Positions 4,258-62,136 are shown, numbered from the stretch's first letter. The stretch: 64,000 bases of DNA from an uncultured Candidatus Saccharibacteria bacterium (GCA_964471165.1 CAYYEX010000001.1:1037-65036); one strand, 5' to 3'. A program made the numbers and translations. The notes: generated by a model from the letters alone, not told the origin.

Positions 4258-5190
4258 TTACTCCGTCGATGTGACAGAATCCGCTTGTACTGCTTCCGGT
4301 GCGGGCTCGCTAGCAACTGGCTCCGACTCAGGCAACGCATCTGGCGCGTCGTCAGGTTCTGCATCCGGTTCGCTATCAGTCGCCTCGTCGATTTTTCTGT
4401 CGATAACAGGCGTTGTTGTACCGACCTCTGCATCCTCACCACTCGGTGTCGGTTCCGTCACGGCGTCCGTCGAAGTCGACGTTTCGTTGTCCGGCGTCGA
4501 ACTCGCAACTTCAACCGTCGACGTCGCTTCCAAAATTGTCTCGGTGCTTGTTGCTGTTGTCGTTGCGATTGTCACTGCATCTGTGTCGATTACGGGTGTT
4601 TCAATGGTATATGTGAGTGATTCGGCGTCCGGTCCGTAGCCGATTGCTTTGACAGTGTTTTTATCGCGATAAATTACCTGGAAACCTTTTCCCTTTGGAC
4701 TATCGTACACATTCACAGAAATGCTGTTGGAAGTGCTTGTGCCGAACTTTTCCAGAAAGTCTCCGGACTCGTACTCCGGCAATCGTTGTCTCTCTAAAAT
4801 CTGCAGGTACTTTCCATTTTTTTCGTAGTGCTCAGATTGCGCAGCTACAACCGTTTGTATAGCTATATCAATGTCTGCTAGTGAAAGCGTTTCAACAACC
4901 TCATCGGTCTGAACCTCCGGCGCGCTCGTTGCCACATCTTCAGCAATAACGACCTCCTCAACTATTGGCGTACTCGTACTGGCCTCAACGGTTTCCTCAG
5001 ATGAGGTTGCGACACTCTCCTCTGTAGCAGTAGCAATGCTCTCATCGGTAGGCGGAAGTGGCAGAATAGGGGTAGTTGTTGTTGCAAATATTTCTGCGTC
5101 GGAAGACGTTGATACTGATTGTCCGGTTGCAATAATCGGCATTGCAATGACTGCAAGAATGGTTCCGAGGGCAAAGACTCGACGTAACAT
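4258..5190 (-). CDS. Secreted acidic Thr/Glu/Ser/Ala-rich low-complexity protein (hypothetical).
   Basis: Signal peptide MLRRVFALGTILAVIAMPIIATGQ, then T/E/S-rich tracts. An extended -10 TGATAGAAT sits 8 nt upstream of the ATG. Confidence 0.5.
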   Translation of the reverse strand: MLRRVFALGTILAVIAMPIIATGQSVSTSSDAEIFATTTTPILPLPPTDESIATATEESVATSSEETVEASTSTPIVEEVVIAEDVATSAPEVQTDEVVETLSLADIDIAIQTVVAAQSEHYEKNGKYLQILERQRLPEYESGDFLEKFGTSTSNSISVNVYDSPKGKGFQVIYRDKNTVKAIGYGPDAESLTYTIETPVIDTDAVTIATTTATSTETILEATSTVEVASSTPDNETSTSTDAVTEPTPSGEDAEVGTTTPVIDRKIDEATDSEPDAEPDDAPDALPESEPVASEPAPEAVQADSVTSTE

Positions 5191-5264: not shown

Positions 5265-5678
5265 CTAGTCAACGTTAAAAAACTTCGTCGTCGATGGAGT
5301 TTGAAATGGCTTTTTTATAAACACCGTGTCGTTAAAATCGTAAGGAATATAAATGTTTATTGTTCCAGTTTCACCATCAGCTAATTCCATTTGGATCGCA
5401 TCTACTTTCTCATCTGTACGCGGATCGATAACCCCCACTGTGAAGCAGAGGCAGAGGGCCACTATCTCCCCCTCCTGCACCGTCTTTCGCAAGTCCTTTC
5501 GGATTACTTCTAATTGATCAGCGGCGTTCTCTGCGACGGGTTCATACATATGCACCTCTGGTCTACTGTGGCCTCTGCCGAGCGTAACAACAAAGGGAGC
5601 AACTTCCTCTCTTTTATTTAGCCTGACCTCAATTAGATCGAACGCGAGATTATATGTGGTTTCTAAGATTTCATTCAT
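5265..5678 (-). CDS. Putative immunity protein for the RHS C-terminal toxin (137 aa, cytoplasmic, acidic).
   Basis: Starts 11 nt after the RHS stop codon. Its AT-rich composition matches the toxin tail and differs from the rest of the window. It has no signal peptide. This position and size fit the classic toxin/immunity gene layout. Confidence 0.5.
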   Translation of the reverse strand: MNEILETTYNLAFDLIEVRLNKREEVAPFVVTLGRGHSRPEVHMYEPVAENAADQLEVIRKDLRKTVQEGEIVALCLCFTVGVIDPRTDEKVDAIQMELADGETGTINIYIPYDFNDTVFIKKPFQTPSTTKFFNVD

Positions 5679-5689
5679 AGATCAAACGT

Positions 5690-8600
5690 CTACTTACTTT
5701 TTTTAATCTCATTCAAGTTTTTCCGAATAACTTCAATCTGGTTATTCAATTGCTTTATAGTGTTACTTAGTTGAGTTCTGTGGTCAATAATCAGCTGCAT
5801 CTTGTAGGCAATCTTTTGCGCATGCGCATGAAAATCTCTAAGTTGAGCCGTCCATGCTTGATAGTTAGAATTCTTAACGTCACCAATTGTCTTGGCACTG
5901 TGGTCGAAAATATCGGGAATCCGGCTGGTGCCAGGCTTAGTTACGGACGGAATTTTTTCGGTGTTCTTAACTATCTCGGCTGCTTGTTCTCCGATGGCAC
6001 CCGCTTTCTGATTTTTTGCCAATGAAGCTGCAGCTTCCCCAGCCTTTGCTGCGCGCAACGTAAGCCCCCCAATGGCTGGTACCCCAGGCAATGCCAGCGA
6101 AGTAGTGTCGAGTCCCACTGCCCCGAGATTTGACCAGCTCGGATTGGCAAAAAAGATTCCTACTGAAATTGAAAGCATCGCAAGATCGAATCCGCTTTCT
6201 ATATAAGTTCCCTGTGGGTCTGAGAAGCGCATTGGGTTGCCTCTGCCGTACGAGTAGCTATTAAACTGTTGGGGATCGAGTAAGAAATATGGCTCACTAT
6301 TTCCAGTTATGTTTTTTAACCTCTCAAGATCCCCAATTGCTAAGTGGATCGCATCCTGACTCAAGAACTGTCCGCGAGAGTTTTGTAGATACCTAGCATT
6401 TAGATAATTTAACCCGCTAGCGTCAGTGTATTGGCCGATGAATTGATGCTTTTCGTTTGTCTGACCAGTTGAGCTTGAATAACGAATACCACCGTACGGC
6501 AGGTAGTCGAGGACTTGAAACGGGGTGCCCGAGGCATTTGTAACCACGTTTGTGGAACCAAGATGATCTGAGTGAATGTATCTTGTCGTTGTTGACCTGC
6601 CGTCTGCGGCAACTGTCGCAAGTAGCGAGTCACCTAGGAATATGTACGAAGTGGAGGTTGCTCCTGATATGTCCCAATACTTGTGCGGATACAACGTTGT
6701 GGCAGTCCCGATTGTCTGTCGTACACGCTGATTTTGATAGTCGTAGGCATAGGTGCTCGTAGCTGTGCCAGTAGCAACCTGAGTCATTCGATTGCGGTAG
6801 TCCCACGTGTGGTTCCATGCCCCCGCATTCGTTTCGTTGCCATTGTTGTCGTAAGTAAACGTTGTCCCAAATACTGATGTCGGAGCGTGCGGATTGGCGT
6901 AGCCAGTTCCAGCGTATAGGTGCGTCGGAGTCGTTGTCGCACCACCGCTCGGGCTGTCTGTACTAAATGCTGGGTTATTTACAGCAGTTAAGTCGTTGGC
7001 ACTTGCGGTGCTGTCTGCATATGATTGATTGAACTTGTAGTATGCGGCAAGTCCGGATTCCGCGCCGGTGAGCTGTGAGCCCCTATTTGTATTGATTTGC
7101 GATTGTGTACGTTTTACATTCCAGATTCGCACGTCGTCCAATAACCCATCATATCCGGCGCTCCCCGCCGAGCCATCCGAGCCATACGTCCCTATGCGAA
7201 TTCTGAATGCGTCGTTCTGCGGGTCGTCAGCGAAAGTGCTCGTCGTACCCACAGACAGACCATTCAGGAAAAACTCTGCTTTGTTGGTGATTGCGTCATA
7301 CACCACCGCAATGTGCGACCAGGTACTAGTGGCGAGACTACCGGAGACTGGCGTATCAAATCCCATAAGATTCGATGTAAAGCCAAAATGTGTCGGCTGA
7401 TAAATGAGAAATGCGTACGCACTTGGATCTGCGCCACTTTCTCGTGTTTTGCTAACCACGCCGAAAACATCGTTCATTGATTCCGGCTTTACCCATGCCT
7501 CAATGGTCATGTCACCCGTTATATCGAATGCCGTAGCGTCGTTATGATACGTGTATTGCGCGGAGCCCACTTCCAAATCAAGCGAGCCAGTGTTTCCGTT
7601 TGATGGCGACGTTGTACCCATATACGTCATGTTGCCCAGTACGTCGTAGAGATAGTACTCGGAATACGGGGACGAAGAAGCATTTGTCATCGATGCCCCT
7701 GTAAGTCTATTCAGTCCGTCGTAGGAGTAGGAGACACTTTTTGCTGCTCCGGTTTGTGTCCAATCAGTTATCTGCGTGATGTTACTGGCCGCATCGTATG
7801 TGTAGTCGATTTTCTGAAGGAACGGACTTGATGTTGCGGTTTTGGACGTGTACTTGCTCGACAGTCTGTACAAATGTGCGGCATCGTAGGTATTGACTGT
7901 TCTCACACCATTCCAGAATGTGGTGGTGCCGACTTGACCAAGCGGCGAATAGCTTGTTGTCGATGCAACATTACTCCACACGGTATCTGATGGCGCCTTT
8001 TTCCGCACCGCATACACTTGCCCACCGGGGTTATAGATATATGAAACGAGTGTGCTGTTCGGATATGTGAGGTCCGTGATATTTCCAAGGCGGTCGTACG
8101 TGTACTGCATCATGTAGTTCGTACTAGACGCAGTCGTTGTAGCAAACCGCGTGAGCCCAAGTGCGTTGTATGCGTAGCTCGACGTTGCCGACGGTGTGGC
8201 TGCAATACAAAGTCGTGTTTTGCCATCCGTACAAGTGTCGTACGTATATGTAATTTCAGTACCGCCTGAGCCTGTGTAGTCCTCACTTGTAACCCGATTG
8301 AGTCCGTCGTAGACGAAGTTCACTGTCTGACTCTTGGGATCTACTTGTTGCGATACGTTGCCTGCGAAATCATATGTAAATTGCCACAGGCCGTACGTGG
8401 AATCTGCGGGAGCGTGCAGGTCTTGCGCCTGCGTTCGACGACCGAGTCCGTCATACACGAATCCGCGCACATTCCCAAGCGCATCCGTGGTCGTTGCGAG
8501 GCTACCGGTTAAGTCCCACGTGTAGGTAGTGGTCGCGAGCGTCGAGGCATTGTGTTCTACAACATTCGCTATATTTCCGAACGCATCCTTTGATACATCT

Positions 8601-11600
8601 TTCAAATTACCCATTGGGTCGGTGGTTGTAATCGCCCAGTTCGCGTACGAGTTTGATGTTGTTCCAACAGCGTTTCCTATTGCAGTGAGCCGACCAAGCG
8701 AATCGCGAAGCGACGTGGAGTAGAGCGCAGCTGTTGCTGTCGGCGCAGAACGAGCGGTGCCCGATGAGAAATACGGCAACGTTTCTCGCCAGTTGAATCC
8801 ACTCGCGTCGTAACTCATATCTTTGACGGCGTACTGGTTGGTGGTTTCCGTGCTCGCACGGGTTTGAATCGTGCGTCCAAGGCCGTCAAGATATTCGTAG
8901 GCGTTTGTGCTTGATGCGGCGTTCAAGTTTGCTGTTCGCTGCACAGCAAACGCATTTGGCGTGTTCGTATATGTGTATTGTGTCTTTGTGACGAGCGTAG
9001 TGGGCGTCGTTTGGTCTGGCTGTTTTTCTTGCGTTGGCCGGTCAAGTGCATCGAAAATAGTTTGGAAGACTCTATTATTTTCGTCGGTCTTCTGTTTTAC
9101 TTTCCCTGCTGAGTAGTCGTATTGATAACCCACAGTGTGACTGAGCGGATTCGTGCTGGTAGCGACATATAAGTTCAGGGAATCATATACAAAGCTCGTT
9201 GTGTTGCCTCGTGGGTCTTTTTCTTGAGTAGGCAGCCCGTACAAGTTGTATGCCTTTGTGGTACTTGCGTAGGTGGACCCAGAAATCCATTTTTCTGCCT
9301 TTGTGGGATTACCCAAATTCACCGACCCATACGTGGTGTTGTCGTATGTATATTTTTCAAGAGCAATCGTTGTACCCACTGTAGTCGTTGCAGTCGAGGA
9401 CCCGCTTACTGACCATGTGCCACTTGTTGAAAACGTAAAGATGGTACTGGTTCCACTTGTCGTGCGCGAACCACCAGTCACTGTGTAAGCAGAAATGACG
9501 GACGTCGGTACTGAGATGATAACCGTCCCGTCACCACCCTTTCCACCAGCCGCGCCATCCTTACTTCCACCGCCACCCCCTCCGCGGCCATCTGTGCCTG
9601 GATTACCAGCCTGCGCTCCACCAGCACTACCACCTGCGCCACCACCACCAGTGCCGCCCGACTGGCCACCACCACTACAATTTGAGCCACCATTTCCACC
9701 ACCACCCGCATATGTCACTGAAGAACCTGTAATCGAACTCGCTGAACCATTACCTCCTGCGGACCCATCAGTTGCGGCAGCCCCCGCACCTCCGCCTGAA
9801 CCACCCTGATTACACGCGCCAGAATTTTTTCCGCCATTATTACCTTGACCCGCAGTACCGTTGCCCCCAGCGTTTGATGAGTATCCGCCGCCGCCAGAGG
9901 CACCTTGTGAACCTGTGGTTCCAAGCGCGGGCGCACCGCCACCGCCACCGTCGGAGGAGATACCGTTAAAGGTCGAAGTTGCTCCATGTGTACCATTTGA
10001 ACTCGAGTTTGCCCCAGAACCTGCGCCACCTGCGCCGACAGTCACGGTGAATGAACCGGGTATTGTGAGTGTACTTGCACCAGACTTCATGCCGCCTGCA
10101 CCGCCCCCTGCACCGCCAGAGTTAAACCAAGAACCGCCACCGCCTCCCCCGCCTCCAATGATTAAGTAGCTGTACGCAGTTGAAGTACTTGAGGTAACAG
10201 TTGTAGTTGCCGTGAAATCCAATTTTAGGGTGCGTTTTTCAGTTGGAACGCTCATGTTGACTGAACTGCTCGCTGCATAGAGAAAACTCGTGCCACGCTC
10301 ATCGTCACCCACGTCAGTGTAAGTACCATCGTCAGCACCCTGGACCTCTCCGAATTCGTCAGACTCTATCAAGTCGCCATTTGTTGTTGATGCATACGTA
10401 TATGCTTCTCCCACATCTTTATGAATAGACCCGCCATTAAACAACTGAACAAGCTTCCGTCCGAGGCCAATAAAAATGCTATTGCCGCGGTCTGCTGTAT
10501 CCCAACGATAAAATGTTCGTTGAAATAGATTTCCCGATATATCCGAGACATCCTCTCTAAACGGACGATTAACTTGTGCAAACCCTTCAGTTTGTTCGCC
10601 ACTCGTTGTTGCGGTTGCGTCTCCCTGGTTGAAATACGTCGTTACAACCGCATTCGGTTTTGTTTCTGTTGTTTTCCAAAAACCACCAAAGCGCTTGTCT
10701 CTAACCCCACGCGCGAGATACATCTTCCCGCCAGAATATGTGTACGTCGTCGCGGATGTGTTACCGAATCCGTCGTCTGTAGTTATCTTTGAAACCACCA
10801 AAAGAGAAACGGGTAGTTCGGGGTTTAAGCCTGTTTGCGCGGATTGCACATAGTTAATTGTTGTCGTACCACCGTACATGCTTCCGACGCGTTCGATGAT
10901 GTCCTGCTGCTGCTGACCATTCCCCGACCAGTTTGCGTATTCGATATTTGCGAAGTGCCCGTCCCAGTTTGAAGTGCCGTCCACGATTACCTGCGTGATA
11001 TAGCTCGGAAATGTGTATGCTGTGCTCGTAGCCCAACCGGAACCCGTATTGAGGTACACGATTTTAACGTCCGCAACCTCCGCTGGATTCATTCCAGCGG
11101 GTGCAATATTTATTGGCGCCTGATAAGCGCGGACAAAGTCCGCAAGCCCGTCGCCGTTGATATCCATGAATCTCATCCCGCGATCGTAATATTGCGAAGG
11201 CGACCCAGTTTTGTAATACGTCGGTGTTGCAATCGTCCACCGAGGGTCATCAAAAGTCTCCCAACCACGTGCGGTATTTAATCGCACCGTCGTTTTGACA
11301 TCATCCGAATGAAACCAATCATCGAGACCGTCTCCATTCACATCTACGAGCTGAGAGTAGCTTGCCACCCCGCCACTGGGTCCCGGCAAGTCCATCGGCG
11401 CAGTGTATAAGGTCGTTGTACCTGTATCCCATGCCGATCCATTTCCCAAATACGCCTTCTTTGTTTCCCCAGCGGCTGCCAGGATAAAATCCGGAAGTCC
11501 GTCGCCATTAACCTCTGCAAACAACCCTGTGGTCAAGCCAGTGCCTGGAGAATTGATGGCGAAGTTTGGCACTTCTCCTGTATATGTAGTGCTCGCAACC

Positions 11601-12895
11601 CAACTGAAACCCGTAGATGTGGCATACGAGTTGAGATAGACACCTACGGTCGAACTTCCTGATTCGGAAAGGCCCTTCGCAACATCCACTTTTCCATCAC
11701 CGTTTATGTCCACGTAGCGTACACCATATTCCTGCGGAATATTACTGCTATCTGCCCATATCCATGGGGGCGTGACACTCACAGCATTCGCTTGGTCAAG
11801 GGAAATTGAACCTTGGTATACCCCTGAGACTGATTTGAAAAGGGATATATCATTTAACCCGTTACCATTTACGTCACCGGGAACCATTGAGGCTTTATTG
11901 AGGATTAGGTCGGCAGAACTTGGCGAAACGTAGCGAGTACTCGTCGATATATACGTGAAATTAATGGGAGGCAGCGAGATTTGGGCCGCCGATTCGTCTT
12001 TTCCTGTTTGTTGAACCGATGAAAGCAGCGAACGCGAGCCGTTATTTCCCGTGGTGTACGAAAGCGCATACTTCTGAGTCCAGGAGCCTGAAACTTCGGC
12101 CAATATTTGGGTGACTCGGAATCGAGTGGTAACCCCAAATCCCTCTTTATAGCTCGTTAGCTGGTCTGCACGTGTCGATGTGGAGAACGTGATTGTCAGC
12201 GGACCGTCCGTAACGCCATTACCCGTGTAGAAAATCTTGTATGGATAAACTTGATTGAAATCCTTTACGTAGGTGTACTTTACGTAATTTCCGTTCGTAT
12301 CTCGGACTTCTTGCAACATCCAGCGATATATAAGTGTTGGCGAGGATGTAGATTCTGTTCTGCCCGACGAATCCGAGCCGAACGTGTATTTAGTGCCTTT
12401 TTTATCGTAAACGGTCCACACATTGCCGGAAAGTGTGTATGAATTATATGCCCCTGTATCAATCTTTGCCCGGTATGGACTCGATGTTGCGGTTGTGGTG
12501 GTCGCAAGCTCTCCATCTATCGAAGAACTGTAAGTCGGTTGATTGTACAGGTTCTGTACCCCCGTTTTATTCAAGCGTTCAATATATGGGATTGATAGCG
12601 ACCATCCGTATCCAACAATGCTGTTTTCTGTGCGCTGACTATTGTATTCGAGCGCTAGGTCGGGCTGCATGCCAAGGCGGCCGGGGGGAATCGACAGAGC
12701 GATTCGTTGTGTTAACGCCCCAGTTGAACCATCAACTTTTGCCTGACTACTCTGAGTAAAAACGTTTTGATTGGGAACAGAGGGCGCAGCGAGAGCGAAA
12801 GTTTTTACCGGCACCAGGGGTGCAACTACGAGAAAACAGAGAACAATAGAAATTGCCTTGTTGAAAACCGAGTCACGCAGAGAGAATACGTTCAC
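5690..12895 (-). CDS. Secreted RHS/YD-repeat polymorphic toxin, 2401 aa, with a fused TcB/TcC-like BC cocoon architecture: SpvB domain, FG-GAP repeats, Gly-rich insert, LamG-like domain, RHS repeats, RHS core, and a C-terminal toxin. It starts with GTG.
   Basis: Signal peptide. SpvB motif LSIPPGRLGMQPDLALEYNS..GYGWSL. FG-GAP motifs DVNGDGLDD, DINGDGLAD, VNGDGLPD. Many YD repeats (YTYDAASNITQITD, YSYDGLNRLT, YAYDYQNQRVRQT). RHS core YIHSDHLGSTNVV...GLNYLNARYLQNSRGQFLSQD...NPMRFSDPQG. Confidence 0.9.
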   Translation of the reverse strand: MNVFSLRDSVFNKAISIVLCFLVVAPLVPVKTFALAAPSVPNQNVFTQSSQAKVDGSTGALTQRIALSIPPGRLGMQPDLALEYNSQRTENSIVGYGWSLSIPYIERLNKTGVQNLYNQPTYSSSIDGELATTTTATSSPYRAKIDTGAYNSYTLSGNVWTVYDKKGTKYTFGSDSSGRTESTSSPTLIYRWMLQEVRDTNGNYVKYTYVKDFNQVYPYKIFYTGNGVTDGPLTITFSTSTRADQLTSYKEGFGVTTRFRVTQILAEVSGSWTQKYALSYTTGNNGSRSLLSSVQQTGKDESAAQISLPPINFTYISTSTRYVSPSSADLILNKASMVPGDVNGNGLNDISLFKSVSGVYQGSISLDQANAVSVTPPWIWADSSNIPQEYGVRYVDINGDGKVDVAKGLSESGSSTVGVYLNSYATSTGFSWVASTTYTGEVPNFAINSPGTGLTTGLFAEVNGDGLPDFILAAAGETKKAYLGNGSAWDTGTTTLYTAPMDLPGPSGGVASYSQLVDVNGDGLDDWFHSDDVKTTVRLNTARGWETFDDPRWTIATPTYYKTGSPSQYYDRGMRFMDINGDGLADFVRAYQAPINIAPAGMNPAEVADVKIVYLNTGSGWATSTAYTFPSYITQVIVDGTSNWDGHFANIEYANWSGNGQQQQDIIERVGSMYGGTTTINYVQSAQTGLNPELPVSLLVVSKITTDDGFGNTSATTYTYSGGKMYLARGVRDKRFGGFWKTTETKPNAVVTTYFNQGDATATTSGEQTEGFAQVNRPFREDVSDISGNLFQRTFYRWDTADRGNSIFIGLGRKLVQLFNGGSIHKDVGEAYTYASTTNGDLIESDEFGEVQGADDGTYTDVGDDERGTSFLYAASSSVNMSVPTEKRTLKLDFTATTTVTSSTSTAYSYLIIGGGGGGGGSWFNSGGAGGGAGGMKSGASTLTIPGSFTVTVGAGGAGSGANSSSNGTHGATSTFNGISSDGGGGGAPALGTTGSQGASGGGGYSSNAGGNGTAGQGNNGGKNSGACNQGGSGGGAGAAATDGSAGGNGSASSITGSSVTYAGGGGNGGSNCSGGGQSGGTGGGGAGGSAGGAQAGNPGTDGRGGGGGGSKDGAAGGKGGDGTVIISVPTSVISAYTVTGGSRTTSGTSTIFTFSTSGTWSVSGSSTATTTVGTTIALEKYTYDNTTYGSVNLGNPTKAEKWISGSTYASTTKAYNLYGLPTQEKDPRGNTTSFVYDSLNLYVATSTNPLSHTVGYQYDYSAGKVKQKTDENNRVFQTIFDALDRPTQEKQPDQTTPTTLVTKTQYTYTNTPNAFAVQRTANLNAASSTNAYEYLDGLGRTIQTRASTETTNQYAVKDMSYDASGFNWRETLPYFSSGTARSAPTATAALYSTSLRDSLGRLTAIGNAVGTTSNSYANWAITTTDPMGNLKDVSKDAFGNIANVVEHNASTLATTTYTWDLTGSLATTTDALGNVRGFVYDGLGRRTQAQDLHAPADSTYGLWQFTYDFAGNVSQQVDPKSQTVNFVYDGLNRVTSEDYTGSGGTEITYTYDTCTDGKTRLCIAATPSATSSYAYNALGLTRFATTTASSTNYMMQYTYDRLGNITDLTYPNSTLVSYIYNPGGQVYAVRKKAPSDTVWSNVASTTSYSPLGQVGTTTFWNGVRTVNTYDAAHLYRLSSKYTSKTATSSPFLQKIDYTYDAASNITQITDWTQTGAAKSVSYSYDGLNRLTGASMTNASSSPYSEYYLYDVLGNMTYMGTTSPSNGNTGSLDLEVGSAQYTYHNDATAFDITGDMTIEAWVKPESMNDVFGVVSKTRESGADPSAYAFLIYQPTHFGFTSNLMGFDTPVSGSLATSTWSHIAVVYDAITNKAEFFLNGLSVGTTSTFADDPQNDAFRIRIGTYGSDGSAGSAGYDGLLDDVRIWNVKRTQSQINTNRGSQLTGAESGLAAYYKFNQSYADSTASANDLTAVNNPAFSTDSPSGGATTTPTHLYAGTGYANPHAPTSVFGTTFTYDNNGNETNAGAWNHTWDYRNRMTQVATGTATSTYAYDYQNQRVRQTIGTATTLYPHKYWDISGATSTSYIFLGDSLLATVAADGRSTTTRYIHSDHLGSTNVVTNASGTPFQVLDYLPYGGIRYSSSTGQTNEKHQFIGQYTDASGLNYLNARYLQNSRGQFLSQDAIHLAIGDLERLKNITGNSEPYFLLDPQQFNSYSYGRGNPMRFSDPQGTYIESGFDLAMLSISVGIFFANPSWSNLGAVGLDTTSLALPGVPAIGGLTLRAAKAGEAAASLAKNQKAGAIGEQAAEIVKNTEKIPSVTKPGTSRIPDIFDHSAKTIGDVKNSNYQAWTAQLRDFHAHAQKIAYKMQLIIDHRTQLSNTIKQLNNQIEVIRKNLNEIKKSK
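5693..6208 (-). other. Variable C-terminal toxin domain of the RHS protein (172 aa after DPQG). No recognisable catalytic family. It has a hydrophobic segment and a C-terminal coiled coil.
   Basis: It follows the RHS aspartyl-protease/cleavage motif. Local GC drops sharply relative to the upstream 6.5 kb of the same gene. Confidence 0.6.
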
Positions 12896-12902
12896 GGAAA
12901 AG

Positions 12903-12919
12903 CCGTGGCGGTGCCACAG
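12903..12919 (-). terminator. Weak hairpin plus a CUUUUCC run between the pyrB stop and the RHS GTG start. It may be a partial terminator or attenuator.
   Basis: Minus-strand RNA reads CUGUGGC-ACC-GCCACGG, a 7 bp stem with one G.U pair, then CUUUUCC directly abutting the GTG at 12895. Confidence 0.25.
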
Positions 12920-17447: not shown

Positions 17448-20400
17448 CTAGTACGGGCCCGAACCGTGCGATTTGCGCAAACCAAGCGTTTTTGCAATTG
17501 CGTGCCCGGCACTATCTTCAGGTCCGTACATGTTGTCCCCGGGCGTGCCTTTCTTAGCAATGAGCCAGACGAGATACACAATGTTTATTCCCGGCACGAG
17601 CGTGAGCAGCGAAACGAATCCATCGTAGCCGATATCGTGCAGTCGGCGAATCTGCAGACCAGTTATCACTGCGTAGACAACTGAGATAACGAGAATCATT
17701 GCGTACATCGACGGAATGAATGCTGATGCTACGGAAACCAGCATAAACAGTGCGGCGGCGAGAACGAGTGACGCCACGAATCCAATGATGAAGTGTGTGC
17801 GATTCAATCGCCCCGCAAAGAAGTTGTAGAGCATTCCTTGTGGCACAGGCGTACCTGCAGCACGGCCGCCCACTGGGCTCAGTACATTGAACTGCTTCGC
17901 AATCACGCTCCCCGGCCAGCGTCGCACAAGAATTGGCACGAATACAAGCGTGAGAAGCATCGCAAACGAAAGACCGAAGAGAATTGCAAGCGCCAGCGGG
18001 CCGAACAGCGCCGAGGCAAACGTGAGCGGAATCATACCGATTACTGTTGTGAGCGTGGTGAGCACAATAGGGCGCAAGCGCGTTGTGGAAGCATCAGTCA
18101 CAATCTCGGTAAAGCTTCTACCGTGGCTGTCTTTCATGCGTTTAATCATCGCATCCATGAGAATAATGGCGTGGTTGATGATAACGCCGGCGAGCGCAAT
18201 GAGACCCATCATCGATGGGAACGAGAGCGGTTGAAACGCAATCGTGAGTCCGAAGAACACACCAATGAGTGAGAGCGGTACAATCGAAAGCAAGAATGAT
18301 GTGAAACGGAACGAATCGAATGCGAGCACGAGAATCACGAACATGAGCGCGAGGCCCGCGACCAGTGAGAGACCCATTTCTGCGAATGACTTGTTAGTTT
18401 CTTCGTTCTCACCGCCTATGGACTCTGTGATTCCTGCTGGCAGGTTCTCTGTTGGGAACTTTTCGTGGAATGCCGCAAGTACTTCTGCCGGCGTATGACC
18501 TGCTTCAACGGCACTTGAGAGCGTTACAACACGCTGTCTATCCTCGTGTGCAATTGCTGCGTTCGACTGAGACACCCCTTCCGTAATCACCGAGCCAAGC
18601 AGCACAGATGTGCCACTTTGGGTTATGAGTGGAATCTGTCGCAGACTATCGATGGTTGTGTTGTTGGCATCGTGCGGGTCTGTGTAGTTTGGATTGAGAT
18701 TGAGCGACACAACGATTTCAACATCTTTATCACCGCCTGTGAGTTTTGTGGCTGTCGCGCCAGAAACCGCAGTGCGCAGTGTTGCTGCAACTTGAGCCGG
18801 TGAGAGCCCGAGCGCGGCCAACTTGCCACGGTCAATCGTGAGTTCGTACTGTGTTCCATCAAACTTGTTCGACGAATCCACCGTTGTTGCACCCGGGGTT
18901 TGCTCCAGCTGTTCTCGCGCGTGACTAACCGTTGCGTTGAGCACTTCCTGGTCCTTTCCAAGATACTTGATGAGCACTGCTGCACCCACTGGCGGTCCAC
19001 CAGATGGCTCACCCACTCGAATTTCTGCTGACTTAATATCTGCAACTTTCTTTTTAATTTCCGTAACAACTTCCGCAGATGTTTTCTCATGGCCCTCCAC
19101 GAGGTTGATTGTGATGTTGGCAAAGCGCGCATCTGACTGCGGGCCCATACCGGTCGTATCCGAGAAAGAGCTCTGCGAGCCAACCGTTGTTACTAATGAC
19201 TCCACGTCCTCCTGTTCGTAGAGGATTTCTTCGATGGTTCGTGCCACAAGGTCGGTCTGATTGAGTGCAGTTCCCGCAGGCTTTTCAATATCCACATAGA
19301 CTACGTCGCCGTTTTCTCCAGGGAAAAAACTCACTTTCATAAGTCCGGTTACCGGCAACAGAATTGCGACAAACAAACCAACGAGCATCGTGGTAATAAA
19401 CCAGTTCTGGAACCAACGGTTCTCAAGAATCTTCGTCAATCGTGCCGAGTACCACTGTCGAGCCTGCTCAGCGTAGTCATCCTGTCGTTTGGCAAGTTCG
19501 CTCTCGTGCGCTCCCTCAAACATGTTCGCGAGCGTTGGTACAAGACCGAGCGCCACGAAGATTGACGCCATAAGCACGAAGATGATGGTGAACGGAATGG
19601 ATGCGATAAATTCCCCGACGATGCCGGAAATAAAGAAGAGTGGGAAGAATACTGCCACGGTTGTCATCGTGCCGCCGATGAGCGGCCACGCGTATTCGTG
19701 TAGCGACTCAATCGCGGCGCGCTTTTTGTCGTGATGCAGTCGCGTGCGCGTATGAATTGCCTCAACCATCACGATCCCCGCGTCAATCAAGATACCGATT
19801 GCGAGAATAAGTGCGAAAAGCGAAACGACGTTGAATGAGTTGCCAGTATACAAAAGGCCGACGAATGCAATGAAGAACGACAGCGGAATAGAAAGCCCTG
19901 CTACTACCGCCTCGCGCCAGCCAATCGTCGCAAAGAGAACAAGCATGATGAGCGCCACGGTCTCCAATCCAGTTCGCGTCAGTTCACTAAGGTTTTTACT
20001 AATCTCTTCGGAGAAGTCGAAAGAAACGACCACCTTGCTCCCGTCGAGCAACTGGTTTGGTTGTTGGAGTTCGGTCAACCGCGCTTTAACTGCTTTGGTC
20101 ACAGTGGTAATGTCGTTTCCCTTTACCTTAAAAACATAGAGTGTCATTGCCTGCTCCGATGGTTCTCCCGCCATAGAAATACGCGAATATGAACGCGCGT
20201 CCTCCACGCCGTCTGTCACATCTGCGATGTCACGCAAATACACGACCTGCCCGTTCACGTTAAGCACTGCAATGCCAGCAATATCGGCAGTGTCGTCGAT
20301 TGAGCCCTTGAAGTCGATTGCGTAGGAAACATCGTCCACCGTAATAGACCCGACTGGCAGCGATGCGTTTGATGCAGCAATAGCCCCTACGATTTGTGAG

Positions 20401-20996
20401 AGTGAAATATTGAGGCGCGCTATCTCTTCTTTACGAACCACAACTTGAATCTCTCGGTCGCGCACACCCGAGACGTCGACGCGATTGACTCCTTTTACAG
20501 CCTGCAGGTCGCTCTTGAGAGATTCCGCGAGTTCTGCAAACTGTGCAGGTGGCACGTCGGCTGAAACAGAAATAAATTGGATTGGCTGGTCCGAGAGATT
20601 TACATCGCTCACGACCGGAGTCGTGGCTTCCTCTGGCAAGTCCGGTACCACCTTATCGACTTCGTCCTTCAGTTTTTGGATTGATTTATCGAGGTCGGCA
20701 TTCGCGTTGAACTCAACAACAATCACCGCGAGGCTTTCACGCGAGTTCGATGTGAGCTTGCTCATGTCGGGCAAATTCGCAAGACGCTCTTCTACCTTGT
20801 TTGTGATAAGACGCTCCACATCTTCCGGCGACGCTCCCGGCAACACAATAGAAACAACGCCAACCGGAATAGATACGTCGGGCGTGGATTCCTTTGTAAT
20901 TTGGAATGCAGCGACGGCGCCCCACAAACTGAGTGCCAAAATCACGAGGATTGTGAACTGTCGTCGTTCAATGAAAAACTGCCAGAGGGGAACCAT
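17448..20996 (-). CDS. RND (AcrB/HAE1-type) efflux permease carrying a C-terminal DUF805 domain fusion (about 140 aa).
   Basis: 1182 aa, 12+ transmembrane helices, and two large periplasmic loops typical of AcrB. The C-terminus reads GRLNRTHF...RRLHDIGYDGF...GTPGDNMYGPEDS, matching DUF805 (the RRLHD and G.P.NRYGP motifs). Confidence 0.9.
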   Translation of the reverse strand: MVPLWQFFIERRQFTILVILALSLWGAVAAFQITKESTPDVSIPVGVVSIVLPGASPEDVERLITNKVEERLANLPDMSKLTSNSRESLAVIVVEFNANADLDKSIQKLKDEVDKVVPDLPEEATTPVVSDVNLSDQPIQFISVSADVPPAQFAELAESLKSDLQAVKGVNRVDVSGVRDREIQVVVRKEEIARLNISLSQIVGAIAASNASLPVGSITVDDVSYAIDFKGSIDDTADIAGIAVLNVNGQVVYLRDIADVTDGVEDARSYSRISMAGEPSEQAMTLYVFKVKGNDITTVTKAVKARLTELQQPNQLLDGSKVVVSFDFSEEISKNLSELTRTGLETVALIMLVLFATIGWREAVVAGLSIPLSFFIAFVGLLYTGNSFNVVSLFALILAIGILIDAGIVMVEAIHTRTRLHHDKKRAAIESLHEYAWPLIGGTMTTVAVFFPLFFISGIVGEFIASIPFTIIFVLMASIFVALGLVPTLANMFEGAHESELAKRQDDYAEQARQWYSARLTKILENRWFQNWFITTMLVGLFVAILLPVTGLMKVSFFPGENGDVVYVDIEKPAGTALNQTDLVARTIEEILYEQEDVESLVTTVGSQSSFSDTTGMGPQSDARFANITINLVEGHEKTSAEVVTEIKKKVADIKSAEIRVGEPSGGPPVGAAVLIKYLGKDQEVLNATVSHAREQLEQTPGATTVDSSNKFDGTQYELTIDRGKLAALGLSPAQVAATLRTAVSGATATKLTGGDKDVEIVVSLNLNPNYTDPHDANNTTIDSLRQIPLITQSGTSVLLGSVITEGVSQSNAAIAHEDRQRVVTLSSAVEAGHTPAEVLAAFHEKFPTENLPAGITESIGGENEETNKSFAEMGLSLVAGLALMFVILVLAFDSFRFTSFLLSIVPLSLIGVFFGLTIAFQPLSFPSMMGLIALAGVIINHAIILMDAMIKRMKDSHGRSFTEIVTDASTTRLRPIVLTTLTTVIGMIPLTFASALFGPLALAILFGLSFAMLLTLVFVPILVRRWPGSVIAKQFNVLSPVGGRAAGTPVPQGMLYNFFAGRLNRTHFIIGFVASLVLAAALFMLVSVASAFIPSMYAMILVISVVYAVITGLQIRRLHDIGYDGFVSLLTLVPGINIVYLVWLIAKKGTPGDNMYGPEDSAGHAIAKTLGLRKSHGSGPY

Positions 20997-38665: not shown

Positions 38666-40432
38666 TCAAAATCCGTTGGCGGAGTTGATGGCGGCGCGGG
38701 TTTTGGGGCCAACGGTGCCAGTTTGTGCAATGCCAGCACTCTTTTGATATTTGATGAGTGCGGCTTTGGTGCCCTGTCCAAAGTATCCCTTGGTAACACC
38801 TACTGGCATCGTCAAAAATCCTTTCGATTCGAGGAATGTTTGCAGTGAGATAACTTCTGGGTCTTTAGAACCAGGGTTGAGATTTTTTGTAATCTTTCCA
38901 GCTTTCCCTACTGCTGTTGGCACAACCGTCGGCGCACTCGGTACTACCGCAGATGGAGTTACTACGGCCGATGTCTGCAAACCACCCGCTGCAAAGTAGT
39001 GCTTGATTCCAGTTTTGATGTACGCGGTAATCACATCAGCACTCACATTCTCGTCGTTATCAGGATGCGAAATGCGACCTACGATTCCTGCTACATCATT
39101 CTCGGTTTTGCCTGGGAACTTGAGCTTTGCGGTTGAGAGTCCCGAGATAGAAGAAAGCATATTGAACACTGTGTCGCTGTCGTCCGATGAGTACACATTG
39201 GCTGCGGCTCCGGCTAAGTCTGGGAAGAGTTTTTTGAATCCCGGTGCTCCAGCCGTGTCAGCAAAGCGACCGAACACGAGCCCAGCGTGCATGTATGACG
39301 CGCCTGTACCCAGATTGCGGCCACCGTCGAACGCGGTATCAAACGAGCTTTCGTACAACACGCCTGCCTCTGTTGGCGAGATGACGTGTGTGCGGTTTAA
39401 ATCTTCGTTGAGAATGCGCTTATTCACGTCGGTGAATATTTTCTTGTGCATCAGTGTCTGGAAGTACACGGCAATACCCTCGTCGAGAAACGGTGCGCGA
39501 TACCCATTACCCCGAAACAGAGTCTGTTGATTCATCGCAAGATGCATCATTTCGTGCGCGAGCGTTTCCGCGATTTCCTCGGTTGTTTTGCTTTTTGTGA
39601 GTTGGTTGTTGAACACAACAATATTTGGGTTTGCGGCAATTGCTTCTGCCTCGAAACCGATTTGCCCGACGGTGCTCAGGTTGTCTGAGATGATTAACAC
39701 CTTGTCTGGTGTTTTTATACCCACATTCGTGAGCATGGTGTCGTCGAGCGTGCCAAGCAATGCAAGTGCTGCGCCGATTTTTTGCACCTCGTCATACGTG
39801 CCAGAAACGGTGTACTTGCCGAATTGCTGCACGGTTCCAGCTGCGCTGGTTTGGAACACCACTACGATGGGCTCGTACTGCGCATGTGACGGGGAGTAGT
39901 GAATGCCGATTGTGTTTGCGCTTGTGGTTGCCTCGCTTGGCCAGAGTGAGATTATTTTCCAGTCACTCGGGAACGTGATTTGCATAGATGGGTCAATGCG
40001 CGACGGGCCGCCCGCCATCCAGAACTCGTACATAGCTACCGGCCCTTTGAAATACGGTGTCATCGTGTAGGTCACATCGTAGAGCTGAACCAGGTTGGGG
40101 TCGGCACTGTTTACCGGTACGCCGAGCACTTCGTCGTACACCTGCACTGGAAACACCTGCTTCTTCGAGTACGTCTCCTGCATCTTTGTGAGTTTGTACC
40201 TAGTGCTCGCGGCCTGCCCGTATGCAGAATATTCTGGTAGATAGAACTGATTATCGGCCGTATTGCGCACAAATGGTATGCGCCACACACCAACTGCACT
40301 GAAATCGCGATTGATAGTAATGGTGGCAAGCTGCGGGTCTACAGACCCTGAATATGCTGCTGCCAACGATGGCACTATTGCTATGAGTGACACGAGCGTC
40401 GTGAGAACTACTTTTCGTATTGATGTACTCAT
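38666..40432 (-). CDS. Secreted zinc metallopeptidase (HExxH) with a C-terminal peptidoglycan-binding domain.
   Basis: Signal peptide, HEMMHLAMNQ zinc-binding motif, and a C-terminal PG_binding_1-like repeat LQTFLESKGFL...GYFGQGTKAALIKYQKSAGI. Confidence 0.7.
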   Translation of the reverse strand: MSTSIRKVVLTTLVSLIAIVPSLAAAYSGSVDPQLATITINRDFSAVGVWRIPFVRNTADNQFYLPEYSAYGQAASTRYKLTKMQETYSKKQVFPVQVYDEVLGVPVNSADPNLVQLYDVTYTMTPYFKGPVAMYEFWMAGGPSRIDPSMQITFPSDWKIISLWPSEATTSANTIGIHYSPSHAQYEPIVVVFQTSAAGTVQQFGKYTVSGTYDEVQKIGAALALLGTLDDTMLTNVGIKTPDKVLIISDNLSTVGQIGFEAEAIAANPNIVVFNNQLTKSKTTEEIAETLAHEMMHLAMNQQTLFRGNGYRAPFLDEGIAVYFQTLMHKKIFTDVNKRILNEDLNRTHVISPTEAGVLYESSFDTAFDGGRNLGTGASYMHAGLVFGRFADTAGAPGFKKLFPDLAGAAANVYSSDDSDTVFNMLSSISGLSTAKLKFPGKTENDVAGIVGRISHPDNDENVSADVITAYIKTGIKHYFAAGGLQTSAVVTPSAVVPSAPTVVPTAVGKAGKITKNLNPGSKDPEVISLQTFLESKGFLTMPVGVTKGYFGQGTKAALIKYQKSAGIAQTGTVGPKTRAAINSANGF

Positions 40433-60555: not shown

Positions 60556-62136
60556 TTAGAGACTATTGAGCACTGCGCGAGTGTTTTTGGCGACGTAGCC
60601 GGTAACAGGCAGCCCGTGTTTCGTTTGGAACTTTTTTACCGCCGCTTCAGTGCCAGCACCAAAGTATCCTGTTGGTTCAGCCGTAAGGAATCCCAGCTTC
60701 ACGAGCAGCTTCTGCAACTCCAACACGTCGGTTTCGTCGTCGCTACCCACACCCATGAAGTGTTCGAATTTGTACTTAGTTCCAGAGGGAGTGGTTGTGA
60801 CCGCCGCTGTCGTAGACGTGGTGCCCGCCGTAATCGTGTTCAGTTCAAGACGCGTGCCCGGGCCGACGGCACCAAGCTGGTCGAGCCCGTGTGCGGCCTG
60901 GAACTTTTTGACCGCTGCAACTGTAGAAGGCCCGAAATATCCATTGGGAGCAACCTTCAGAAATCCGAGCTTCGAAAGAAGTTTCTGCAACTCCATAACT
61001 TCGTCGTTCTCGGAGCCCTGTTTCAAGTACGATGTGAATACGTATCCCGTACCCGCTGTTCCCCCTGTTGTTCCTGCTGCAAGTTGTGCCTGCAGTGCTG
61101 CCAACTGCGCCGCGAGCGTTGAGGCAGTGGTGCCGGATGTGGTTGCGGCGGTAGTCGTAACTGGTGGATTGAGGAGCACACCATTTGGGCCCAGGACGTT
61201 AATGGTGAGCGTGGTCGTTGCGCTCTGCCCATATACACCTACCTGCCCCTTAAACGTCGCAACGTGCTGTCCCGCATCAGAGGCGGTTGGTATCCATGTC
61301 ACCAAACCCGAGGTGTTCACATTGTTGTTTGTGAGCGTGCTCTGTCCGGTAAACTTGTCAGTTACGGAAAATCCGGTTGGCTGATACCCCGTTGGGTTGA
61401 GCGTGAATGTGAGCATTTGCCCCGGAGAAATATTGAGATTGAGGTTCGACGGCGCGGCGAGTGTTGGGCCAGAACCCACACGAACAACCGTGGTCGCCGA
61501 TGCGCTATGCCCCTGAGAATCGTTCGCATACACCGTAATGGCATGTTCGCCATTTTGGGTTGCGTCTGGTGTCCACGAGAAGTTCCCCGACGAGCCGATT
61601 GTTACTGTGTTTACGCTCGAGCCACCAAATGAGTCGCTTGCGATGAATGTGGGGTTCACAAATCCAGGCGAGGAAACAGAGAATGAAAACGTGGTGCCCG
61701 GCATAACCACGCTTCCCGGAACAACTGAATTAATCGAAATCGATGGGGGCGGTAGCACGGTGATTGATTGCGTGACTGTTGCGCTGTTGCCACCACTGTC
61801 GTTTACCTGAATGGTAATGAGGTGCGTGCCGATGTCGGAAACAATTGGCACCCACTGAAAGTTTCCACCGAAGTTTATGTTTGTGGAATTGATGGTGCTC
61901 CCCGCAAAAGAGTCTGTGAGCTGATAGTACGGAGTATTGAAACCAGTCACGGCCACTTTAAATGTGACGCTGGTTTTTGCCATCGGGGTTGCACCAGGCG
62001 AAAGGTTCTCTATTGCTGCAGTTGCAGCACTTGCAAACGCGGTTGGAATGAATAATGCGGCGAGCGCGAGGGATCCCAAGAGAGATTGTTTGAGAGTAAT
62101 CATTCCCTGAGTATATATCGAATTTTGTTTTCGCAA
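60556..62136 (-). CDS. Secreted protein with tandem Ig-like/PKD-like beta domains and two C-terminal peptidoglycan-binding domains.
   Basis: Signal peptide. Repeated beta-rich segments. Two copies of the ELQKLL.KLGFL...GYFG..T.AAVKKFQ..HGL pattern (PG_binding_1-like). Confidence 0.7.
   Translation of the reverse strand: MRKQNSIYTQGMITLKQSLLGSLALAALFIPTAFASAATAAIENLSPGATPMAKTSVTFKVAVTGFNTPYYQLTDSFAGSTINSTNINFGGNFQWVPIVSDIGTHLITIQVNDSGGNSATVTQSITVLPPPSISINSVVPGSVVMPGTTFSFSVSSPGFVNPTFIASDSFGGSSVNTVTIGSSGNFSWTPDATQNGEHAITVYANDSQGHSASATTVVRVGSGPTLAAPSNLNLNISPGQMLTFTLNPTGYQPTGFSVTDKFTGQSTLTNNNVNTSGLVTWIPTASDAGQHVATFKGQVGVYGQSATTTLTINVLGPNGVLLNPPVTTTAATTSGTTASTLAAQLAALQAQLAAGTTGGTAGTGYVFTSYLKQGSENDEVMELQKLLSKLGFLKVAPNGYFGPSTVAAVKKFQAAHGLDQLGAVGPGTRLELNTITAGTTSTTAAVTTTPSGTKYKFEHFMGVGSDDETDVLELQKLLVKLGFLTAEPTGYFGAGTEAAVKKFQTKHGLPVTGYVAKNTRAVLNSL

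Follow-up and report, generated by a model that had tools for sequence, protein, structure and literature searches.

Zhang et al. 2012 (PMC3482391) defined the Tox-REase-7 nucleases by the motifs GxxxE, IxD, ExK and Q, found them on RHS, filamentous-haemagglutinin and tail-fibre scaffolds, and listed ImmHEAT, Imm23 and Imm54 as their immunity partners. Examples are CdiA2-CT/CdiI2 of Acinetobacter baumannii DSM30011, the tails of Pseudomonas and Acinetobacter CdiA proteins, and CJ488_0980/0982 of Campylobacter jejuni. The A. baumannii toxin causes unrepairable DNA breaks in Escherichia coli, against which only the cognate CdiI2 is effective (PMC6831553), and two C. jejuni type VI secretion system (T6SS) effectors that carry the domain contribute to the killing of competitors (bioRxiv 10.64898/2026.03.25.714310). 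We analysed a stretch of 64,000 nucleotides from an uncultured Candidatus Saccharibacteria bacterium (GCA_964471165.1, CAYYEX010000001.1:1037-65036; the whole stretch is called the window below), in which the gene of a 2401-aa RHS protein ending in a Tox-REase-7 domain is followed by an open reading frame (ORF) for a 137-aa protein. We read this chromosomal locus as a module of an RHS polymorphic toxin and its immunity protein, and put the probability of this reading at about 80%.

Like the known Tox-REase-7 toxins, the protein of the window bears the full domain with its motifs at the C-terminus of a polymorphic toxin, with a candidate immunity gene directly downstream. It differs from the domains carried by CdiA (type V secretion system, T5SS) or as T6SS cargo in being mounted on an SpvB/RHS cocoon that would be exported by the Sec pathway, and from known Tox-REase-7 proteins in having D-V-K as its third motif and a partner outside the ImmHEAT, Imm23 and Imm54 families. 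The scaffold resembles the TcB-TcC pairs (TcdB2-TccC3, YenB-YenC2) in its SpvB domain, FG-GAP propeller, RHS shell, core with autoprotease motifs and variable C-terminal cargo. Unlike these, it has a signal peptide and glycine-rich and LamG insertions, shows no detectable TcdB middle domains and has no TcA in the window; its cargo is a nuclease of antibacterial type with an immunity gene, rather than a eukaryote-directed enzyme. With the Rhs effectors of the T6SS (Tse15, RhsA of P. protegens, Tse5, and Rhs proteins of Salmonella and Photorhabdus), it shares a homologous core (E = 2e-11 for Tse15), the two aspartates of a predicted self-cleavage and a probable cognate immunity gene, but its N-terminus is made of a signal peptide and SpvB, with no PAAR or VgrG-binding part, and no T6SS genes are found nearby.

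Two other systems deserve comparison. WapA of Bacillus subtilis is reportedly one of the YD/RHS toxins that single-membrane bacteria export through Sec for contact-dependent inhibition. Like the protein of the window, it is said to have a signal peptide and an RHS/YD body with a variable nuclease at the C-terminus, an immunity gene next to its own gene and orphan cassettes in related loci, but to be devoid of the SpvB and FG-GAP front end and to have tRNases as toxins; the protein of the window, for its part, had no cell-wall-binding domain detectable with Pfam. The C-terminal tails of CdiA are reportedly bipartite, with an N-terminal entry domain followed by the toxin, and the N-terminal segment of the window tail (residues 2231-2290) similarly recurs before a different toxin in a related protein (P0171). 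This segment is hydrophobic and has no sequence relation to the CdiA entry domains. The two genes and the two parts of the tail are as follows.

5690..12895, minus strand: complete RHS polymorphic toxin gene (2401 aa, GTG start, stop codon 5690-5692; ORF list and translation)
5265..5678, minus strand: candidate cognate immunity gene (137 aa, ATG start, predicted cytoplasmic, unnamed alpha+beta family)
6002..6208, minus strand: hydrophobic pre-toxin segment, residues 2230-2298, two hydrophobic helices (second hydrophobic peak of the protein)
5756..6001, minus strand: Tox-REase-7 PD-(D/E)xK nuclease domain, residues 2299-2380 (Pfam PF15649)

The sizes and coordinates of the ORFs, the 11-nt gap between the RHS stop codon and the start of the small ORF (5678) and the 172-aa length of the tail were recomputed and agreed with those of an initial annotation of this DNA; both products were also identical in independent public gene calls on the same 308-kb contig. 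That annotation had described the C-terminal toxin as unrecognisable, which is refuted by a full-length match of the isolated tail with PF15649 (model positions 1-84 of 84, E = 7e-18, 65.1 bits for a cutoff of 25). Tox-REase-7 is also what public precomputed annotation of the 2401-aa protein indicates. The candidate catalytic residues are E2303 (in GAIGE, 2299-2303), D2328 (in RIPD, 2325-2328), D2339 and K2341 (in GDVK, 2338-2341) and Q2346 (in NYQ, 2344-2346). They fit the GxxxE, IxD, ExK, Q signature of the family, with D replacing E in the third motif, and the motifs were invariant or conservatively kept across 7 homologous tails. When the tail and the small ORF were searched directly against PDB sequences, nothing meaningful emerged, the best matches being TatA (E = 0.86) and designed coiled coils. 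In view of the PF15649 match, of the family motifs and of the known members, the proposal of a previously undescribed toxin/immunity pair does not hold for the toxin, whose family has been known since 2012; the immunity partner alone seems to be undescribed.

The nuclease is preceded by the pre-toxin segment, GFDLAMLSISVGIFFANPSW... LALPGVPAIGGLTL, for which Pfam gave no match. This segment was conserved in the related locus L001 and was 56% identical (E = 2e-25) to the same position of P0171, the toxin part of which differs from that of the window, with a weak GIY-YIG signal (E = 0.0018). Since the same segment stands before different toxins, the tail appears to be composed of a reusable pre-toxin segment and a variable toxin. 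Other Tox-REase-7 tails (in loci L005, L008 and L014) have different linkers, which are often hydrophobic too. A hydrophobic stretch after the cleavage motif (Kyte-Doolittle >1.5) showed only a weak trend among 97 relatives (39% vs 28% of tails), and we therefore claim no family-wide rule.

An Imm26-type gene is found both in L001 and next to P0171. In L001 (1301-2160), the homolog of the 137-aa protein is followed by genes for Imm26 and DUF4259, which makes this a poly-immunity locus. The gene downstream of P0171, whose tail shares the segment and has the GIY-YIG-like toxin, begins like the Imm26 gene found second downstream in L001, and this Imm26-like gene lies at 8750-8890 of L020. This pattern suggests that a cassette was once displaced while its immunity gene stayed in place as an orphan.

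When the full-length protein was used as a query, 477 relatives were obtained (E<=1e-20), and the following figures refer to the best 120 listed. Nearly all of these combined SpvB, FG-GAP/VCBS and RHS domains, with variable inserts (Gly_rich_2, LamG, Ig_Rha78A_N, PKD, CBM), and some carried TcdB_toxin_midN (PF12256). Their named hosts were mostly Patescibacteria, or candidate phyla radiation (CPR) bacteria (Kaiserbacteria, Paceibacterota, Pacebacteria, 'Patescibacteria group'), with Bradyrhizobium, Vicinamibacterales and Methanoperedens also represented. These relatives make a CPR bacterium the most likely source of the window. In 97 of the 120, the core ends in NPxxxxDxxG and a tail of 104-231 aa (median 194) comes after it; BLAST sorted these 97 tails into 47 clusters unrelated to one another.

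P0070, which comes closest to the window protein (62% identity over 93% of the query), is encoded in a syntenic locus, L019, and has an unrelated tail. Nucleotide homology between the two loci covered the upstream intergenic region and the gene as far as position 6396 of the window, and there was none across the tail and the small ORF; similarity returned downstream at the protein level only, in a gene of 310 aa in the window and 318 aa in L019 (43% identity). In place of the window cassette, L019 contains an unrelated Cys-rich tail and then an Imm33-like gene. Furthermore, the tail and the small ORF (5265-6208) have a GC content of 0.444, compared with 0.511 for the window, which places them at the 1.7th percentile of equal-sized windows. 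This low GC content and the co-replacement in L019 mark the tail and the small ORF as an exchangeable cassette. Thus, the tail-plus-immunity unit has been exchanged as a whole between otherwise syntenic loci. Orphan cassettes, which the initial annotation had suggested looking for, were present in related loci (as arrays in L005, L008 and L014, and as an orphan tail in L004), while neither orphan RHS cores nor extra tails or extra immunity copies were found elsewhere in the window.

The 'orphan' modules of L014 (1961-2980, 3440-4522, 5043-6206) and L005 (6603-11110) each have their own signal-peptide-like N-terminus (e.g. MRYIPRIFSALLALISLTTPVFVGAQ), a partial core, a distinct tail and a small downstream ORF of their own. 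They may be independently expressed secreted mini-toxins rather than silent cassettes. An observation of another kind concerns the AcrB-type pump of the window (17448-20996, minus strand), which has a C-terminal DUF805 domain. Its 90%-identity cluster also holds a protein of another NCBI contig, possibly the contig that encodes P0071, an RHS protein 61% identical to that of the window with a different tail. If P0071 and the clustered AcrB are indeed on one contig, a closely related genome has swapped its toxin tip.

The 137-aa ORF had no match in Pfam or NCBIfam, even at E<=1, and matched none of the known Tox-REase-7 immunity families (ImmHEAT, Imm23, Imm54) by Pfam profile. With a word-indexed protein search, no more than 2 relatives came to light for the small ORF and 1 for the tail. 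The family of the small ORF became visible with an exhaustive HMMER search of 1.84 billion representatives, in which 65 proteins reached E<=1e-3, 8 of them E<=1e-10. Pfam and NCBIfam gave no match either for the 52-56 members of the small-protein family (0 of 56 in Pfam at E<=0.01), and no relative was found in the PDB by direct search or with a profile of the 52-sequence family. An AlphaFold2 model built from the 52-sequence alignment reached a pLDDT of 94.2, superseding a model from only 2 sequences (pLDDT 60), and speaks for a genuine, folded protein. At a TM-score of about 0.6-0.67, this model (window 5268-5678) was matched solely by uncharacterised phage proteins of 186-223 aa in BFVD, one of them from Mycobacterium phage Catdawg (E about 2e-3 to 2e-2).

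Close homologs of the 137-aa protein (at least 44% identity) were recovered from seven independent loci, the window included. In six of the seven, the homolog starts 3-11 nt downstream of a Tox-REase-7 tail, the seventh locus being L016.

Window: small protein behind the Tox-REase-7 tail of the full RHS protein
L001: homolog behind an RHS C-terminus with Tox-REase-7
L004: homolog behind an orphan 126-aa Tox-REase-7 tail, with no shell
L005 (same locus as L015), Candidatus Ryanbacteria: homolog behind a full RHS protein
L008 (same locus as L009), TARA ocean sample: homolog behind a Tox-REase-7 tail
L014, Hainich groundwater: homolog within an array of orphan RHS-core/tail/immunity modules
L016: N-terminally truncated homolog adjoining a transposase-like gene

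The identity of the toxin and of the small protein to their window counterparts fell jointly across loci (toxin/small protein: 69/65, 63/53, 56/54 and 57/50%). A more distant Tox-REase-7 tail with a canonical ExK (P0162, in L018) is followed immediately downstream by a HEAT-repeat protein, i.e. by the known ImmHEAT pairing. The presence of this gene at the same place indicates that the position is that of the immunity gene, and that the clade of the window uses there a different, unnamed family. The calculated pI was acidic for the 137-aa protein (4.6) and basic for the tail (9.6). Genetic linkage in six of seven loci, co-replacement in L019, co-divergence, low GC content and the opposite charges of the two partners thus bear out the earlier proposal that the adjacent ORF is an immunity gene. 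The 137-aa ORF is very probably the cognate one, and its product would be expected to bind the toxin.

The remaining domains of the 2401-aa protein form the scaffold on which the tail is carried.

12788..12895, minus strand: Sec-type signal peptide or membrane anchor, residues 1-36 (hydrophobic peak; predicted cleavage between ...TFALA and AP)
12260..12730, minus strand: SpvB/TcB N-terminal domain, residues 56-212 (Pfam PF03534, E = 1.4e-17, 64 bits, cutoff 22)
11315..11524, minus strand: FG-GAP repeats, beta-propeller region, residues 458-527 (Pfam FG-GAP at 458-484, E = 3.4e-7)
9512..10207, minus strand: glycine-rich domain inserted in the scaffold, residues 897-1128 (Pfam Gly_rich_2 PF21722, E = 4.2e-17)
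6209..8941, minus strand: RHS/YD-repeat shell, from DUF6443 (1319-1393) to the end of the core (2229) (Pfam)
7091..7567, minus strand: LamG/concanavalin-like domain in the shell, residues 1777-1935 (Pfam Laminin_G_3, E = 8.1e-22, model positions 2-151 of 151)
6209..6505, minus strand: RHS-associated core, residues 2131-2229 (NCBIfam TIGR03696 Rhs_assc_core, E = 3.3e-11, above cutoff)

The SpvB domain, the FG-GAP propeller, the RHS repeats, the RHS core and the DPQG motif (2226-2229) reported in the initial annotation were all recovered with Pfam and NCBIfam (FG-GAP_3 scored 24.3 bits, slightly under its cutoff of 26.9), together with three Pfam domains that it did not mention, Gly_rich_2, DUF6443 and Laminin_G_3. 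RHS_repeat was matched by nine stretches (Pfam, E = 1.9e-13), and YD motifs were spread across residues 1182-2049. The Gly_rich_2 domain occurred in some of the scaffold relatives only, and the LamG region gave the sole direct sequence match of the whole protein in the PDB (4dqa). Only two hydrophobic peaks were present in the 2401 residues, one at the N-terminus (residues 6-40) and the other just after the cleavage motif (from 2232); the N-termini of close relatives were equivalent to the signal-peptide-like segment of the window protein.

The core ends with NPMRFSDPQG, which fits the PxxxxDPxG pattern of RHS polymorphic toxins. The residues of the aspartyl autoprotease motif are D2181 (in FLSQDA, 6353-6355) and D2226 of DPQG (6218-6220), and self-cleavage is predicted to occur after G2229. 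A core profile made from the window and related loci matched the structures of Tse15, RHS2/YenC2, TccC2 and TcdB2-TccC3 in the PDB (E = 2e-11 to 1e-8), as well as several T6SS Rhs proteins and teneurins. Two Tse15 entries (one of them 8uxt) differ by D-to-N at the catalytic aspartates, to which D2181 and D2226 correspond in the window.

These features can be assembled in a plausible sequence of events. The 2401-aa protein would leave the cell through the Sec pathway, by virtue of its N-terminal signal peptide. The SpvB domain, the FG-GAP propeller and the RHS/YD repeats would form a TcB-TcC-like cocoon, as homology to solved Rhs and Tc shells suggests; this cocoon would bear two surface insertions (glycine-rich and LamG lectin-like) and enclose the last 172 residues. 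The aspartyl autoprotease of the RHS core, the motifs of which are conserved, is expected to cut after DPQG and to free the tail. The first part of the latter, the hydrophobic pre-toxin segment of about 65 aa, would, we speculate, probably help in membrane passage. The second part, the Tox-REase-7 nuclease, would then cut the DNA of the recipient cell, by analogy with the Acinetobacter CdiA2-CT. In the producer and its kin, the acidic 137-aa protein, linked to the toxin gene, would bind and block the basic nuclease.

As to delivery, the absence of a TcA-like partner from the window, already remarked upon in the initial annotation, was confirmed: the 64 kb contain no ORF of TcA size, the next largest products being the AcrB-type pump (1182 aa) and a P-type ATPase (883 aa). 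Pfam detected no PAAR/VgrG, LXG/WXG or CdiB/FHA delivery domain in the 2401-aa protein, and no genes for the T6SS, the type VII secretion system (T7SS) or CdiB were present among the 20 window ORFs scanned, which included all those of at least 400 aa. With a signal peptide of its own and no TcA, T6SS or T7SS in the window, the protein is best read as a Sec-exported, antibacterial toxin, in agreement with the WapA/Rhs-like role suggested earlier.

Three other readings were weighed and found unlikely, namely that the protein is part of a Tc ABC toxin, that the small ORF encodes a chaperone, and that the locus has decayed. The protein could be the BC subunit of a genuine ABC (Tc) complex, with a TcA encoded elsewhere docking on its FG-GAP propeller and its tail being delivered into eukaryotic cells, such as those of a protist or an insect. 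Its SpvB domain, propeller and RHS core do reproduce the architecture of a fused TcB-TcC, its core profile matches the structures of TcdB2-TccC3 and YenC2, and PF12256 is found in some relatives. We nevertheless regard both the docking and the eukaryotic target as very unlikely. No TcA-sized ORF was present in the 64 kb or among the called flank genes of L005, L018 and L019, the TcdB mid-N and mid-C domains (PF12256 and PF12255) were undetected by Pfam in the protein even at E<=1, and the protein has a signal peptide. Moreover, the cargo is an antibacterial-type nuclease, which, like the dedicated immunity gene and the orphan cassettes, is characteristic of polymorphic toxins that act between bacteria. 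That the locus is a decayed relic, with a dead nuclease or a protein that is no longer exported and has no current toxic role, is the least probable of these alternatives. It would be in line with the GTG start, the lack of a clear ribosome-binding site and the D that replaces E in ExK. However, the 7.2-kb ORF is uninterrupted, the immunity gene is intact, and conservation extends to all nuclease motifs and to the two aspartates of the protease. Among PD-(D/E)xK enzymes, D-x-K is a standard variant, and D-V-K was found in all five close homologous nuclease tails.

The 137-aa protein could also serve as a chaperone or an adaptor, or be a housekeeping protein that has no relation to the toxin and just happens to be encoded downstream. 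This is quite improbable in our opinion, despite the fact that no known immunity family matches it and that its remote homologs (21-30% identity) stand alone in metabolic neighbourhoods. The latter were found between enzymes of the MR_MLE (mandelate-racemase) type, beside DUF885, and in the vicinity of cytochrome bd genes and of a BrnT/BrnA pair (L006/L007, L010-L012 and L013), and they belong to a wider unnamed family of alpha+beta proteins of about 140 aa, with conserved PF...DV.V..P....DAI...LE...G....V.PY motifs. The initial annotation had held that conserved homologs without linkage to RHS loci would speak against an immunity role; such homologs exist only as these remote relatives, whereas the close clade stands behind Tox-REase-7 tails in six of seven loci. 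The non-toxin neighbourhoods indicate that the fold is not dedicated to immunity, and a single clade of the family seems to have been recruited to it. A chaperone of the scaffold would have no role to play behind the shell-less tail of L004 or in the orphan array of L014. The small ORF was also replaced jointly with the tail in L019 and diverges with the toxin; an acidic protein facing a basic nuclease suits an inhibitor, and L018 has its HEAT-repeat immunity gene at the same position.

Several points nonetheless weigh against the interpretation of the locus as a toxin/immunity module. The remote relatives of the small protein live in non-toxin neighbourhoods, and the third catalytic position of the nuclease is D-x-K where the family usually has E-x-K. 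No Shine-Dalgarno-like sequence was evident 5' of the RHS gene or of the immunity gene. The search for TcA covered the 64-kb window, and a TcA could be encoded elsewhere in the genome. Finally, toxicity, autocleavage, export and toxin-immunity binding are all predictions, and a CPR origin of the window is deduced from the relatives.

The neighbouring genes have housekeeping and transport functions: an aspartate/ornithine carbamoyltransferase, an M29 peptidase, a histidine phosphatase, an AcrB/HlyD/MacB efflux set, a P-type ATPase, a Zip transporter, Fur, YibE/F, a class II aminoacyl-tRNA synthetase and peptidoglycan-binding proteins. Over the whole window (1-64000), genes are nearly all on the minus strand, with several efflux sets (HlyD, MacB/FtsX, ABC, RND), and two large proteins with peptidoglycan-binding domains are encoded at 38666-40432 and 60556-62136. 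ARAGORN and Rfam (at gathering thresholds) found no tRNA, rRNA or other RNA families in the 64 kb. A GC-rich hairpin followed by a T run is located at 12903-12919 (minus strand), 8 nt upstream of the GTG of the RHS gene, and probably serves as terminator for the carbamoyltransferase gene that lies further upstream. The gene directly downstream of the immunity gene (4258-5190, minus strand) encodes a 310-aa secreted protein with Thr/Glu/Ala low complexity and no match in Pfam. It is the central part of this protein (YFEKNGKYLQIL...GKGFQVIY...GYGP) that shows the 43% identity to the 318-aa product at the same position in L019. The conservation of the 310-aa protein may reflect a partnership with the RHS locus or mere proximity to it.

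The toxin as such is of little novelty, Tox-REase-7 domains on RHS scaffolds having been catalogued in 2012. In contrast, the immunity family of the 137-aa protein is seemingly undescribed and unnamed. Its confidently predicted fold, with no close solved relative, makes it a candidate for a new mode of inhibition of an enzyme with a restriction-endonuclease fold. The locus also provides a clean natural case of replacement of a whole cassette, tail and immunity gene together, between syntenic loci of uncultivated CPR-like bacteria. The recurring pre-toxin segment and the lectin-like insertions in the shell give hints as to how a BC-type cocoon might function without a TcA injector, and the likely CPR setting of such a TcA-free cocoon in the window is a further, modest novelty.

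A wider picture may be drawn from all this, which we offer tentatively and consider rather unlikely to be right in full. In CPR/Patescibacteria, which live attached to other bacteria, Sec-exported SpvB/RHS cocoons would be self-contained, TcA-free delivery devices. Their LamG and glycine-rich domains would bind the target, the pre-toxin segment would carry the nuclease across the membrane of the recipient, and the 137-aa protein would represent a new structural class of PD-(D/E)xK inhibitor, derived from a widespread housekeeping fold. From a narrow literature search, polymorphic toxins appear to have been little studied in CPR bacteria; such toxins could be relevant to the competition of these episymbionts or to their dealings with their hosts.

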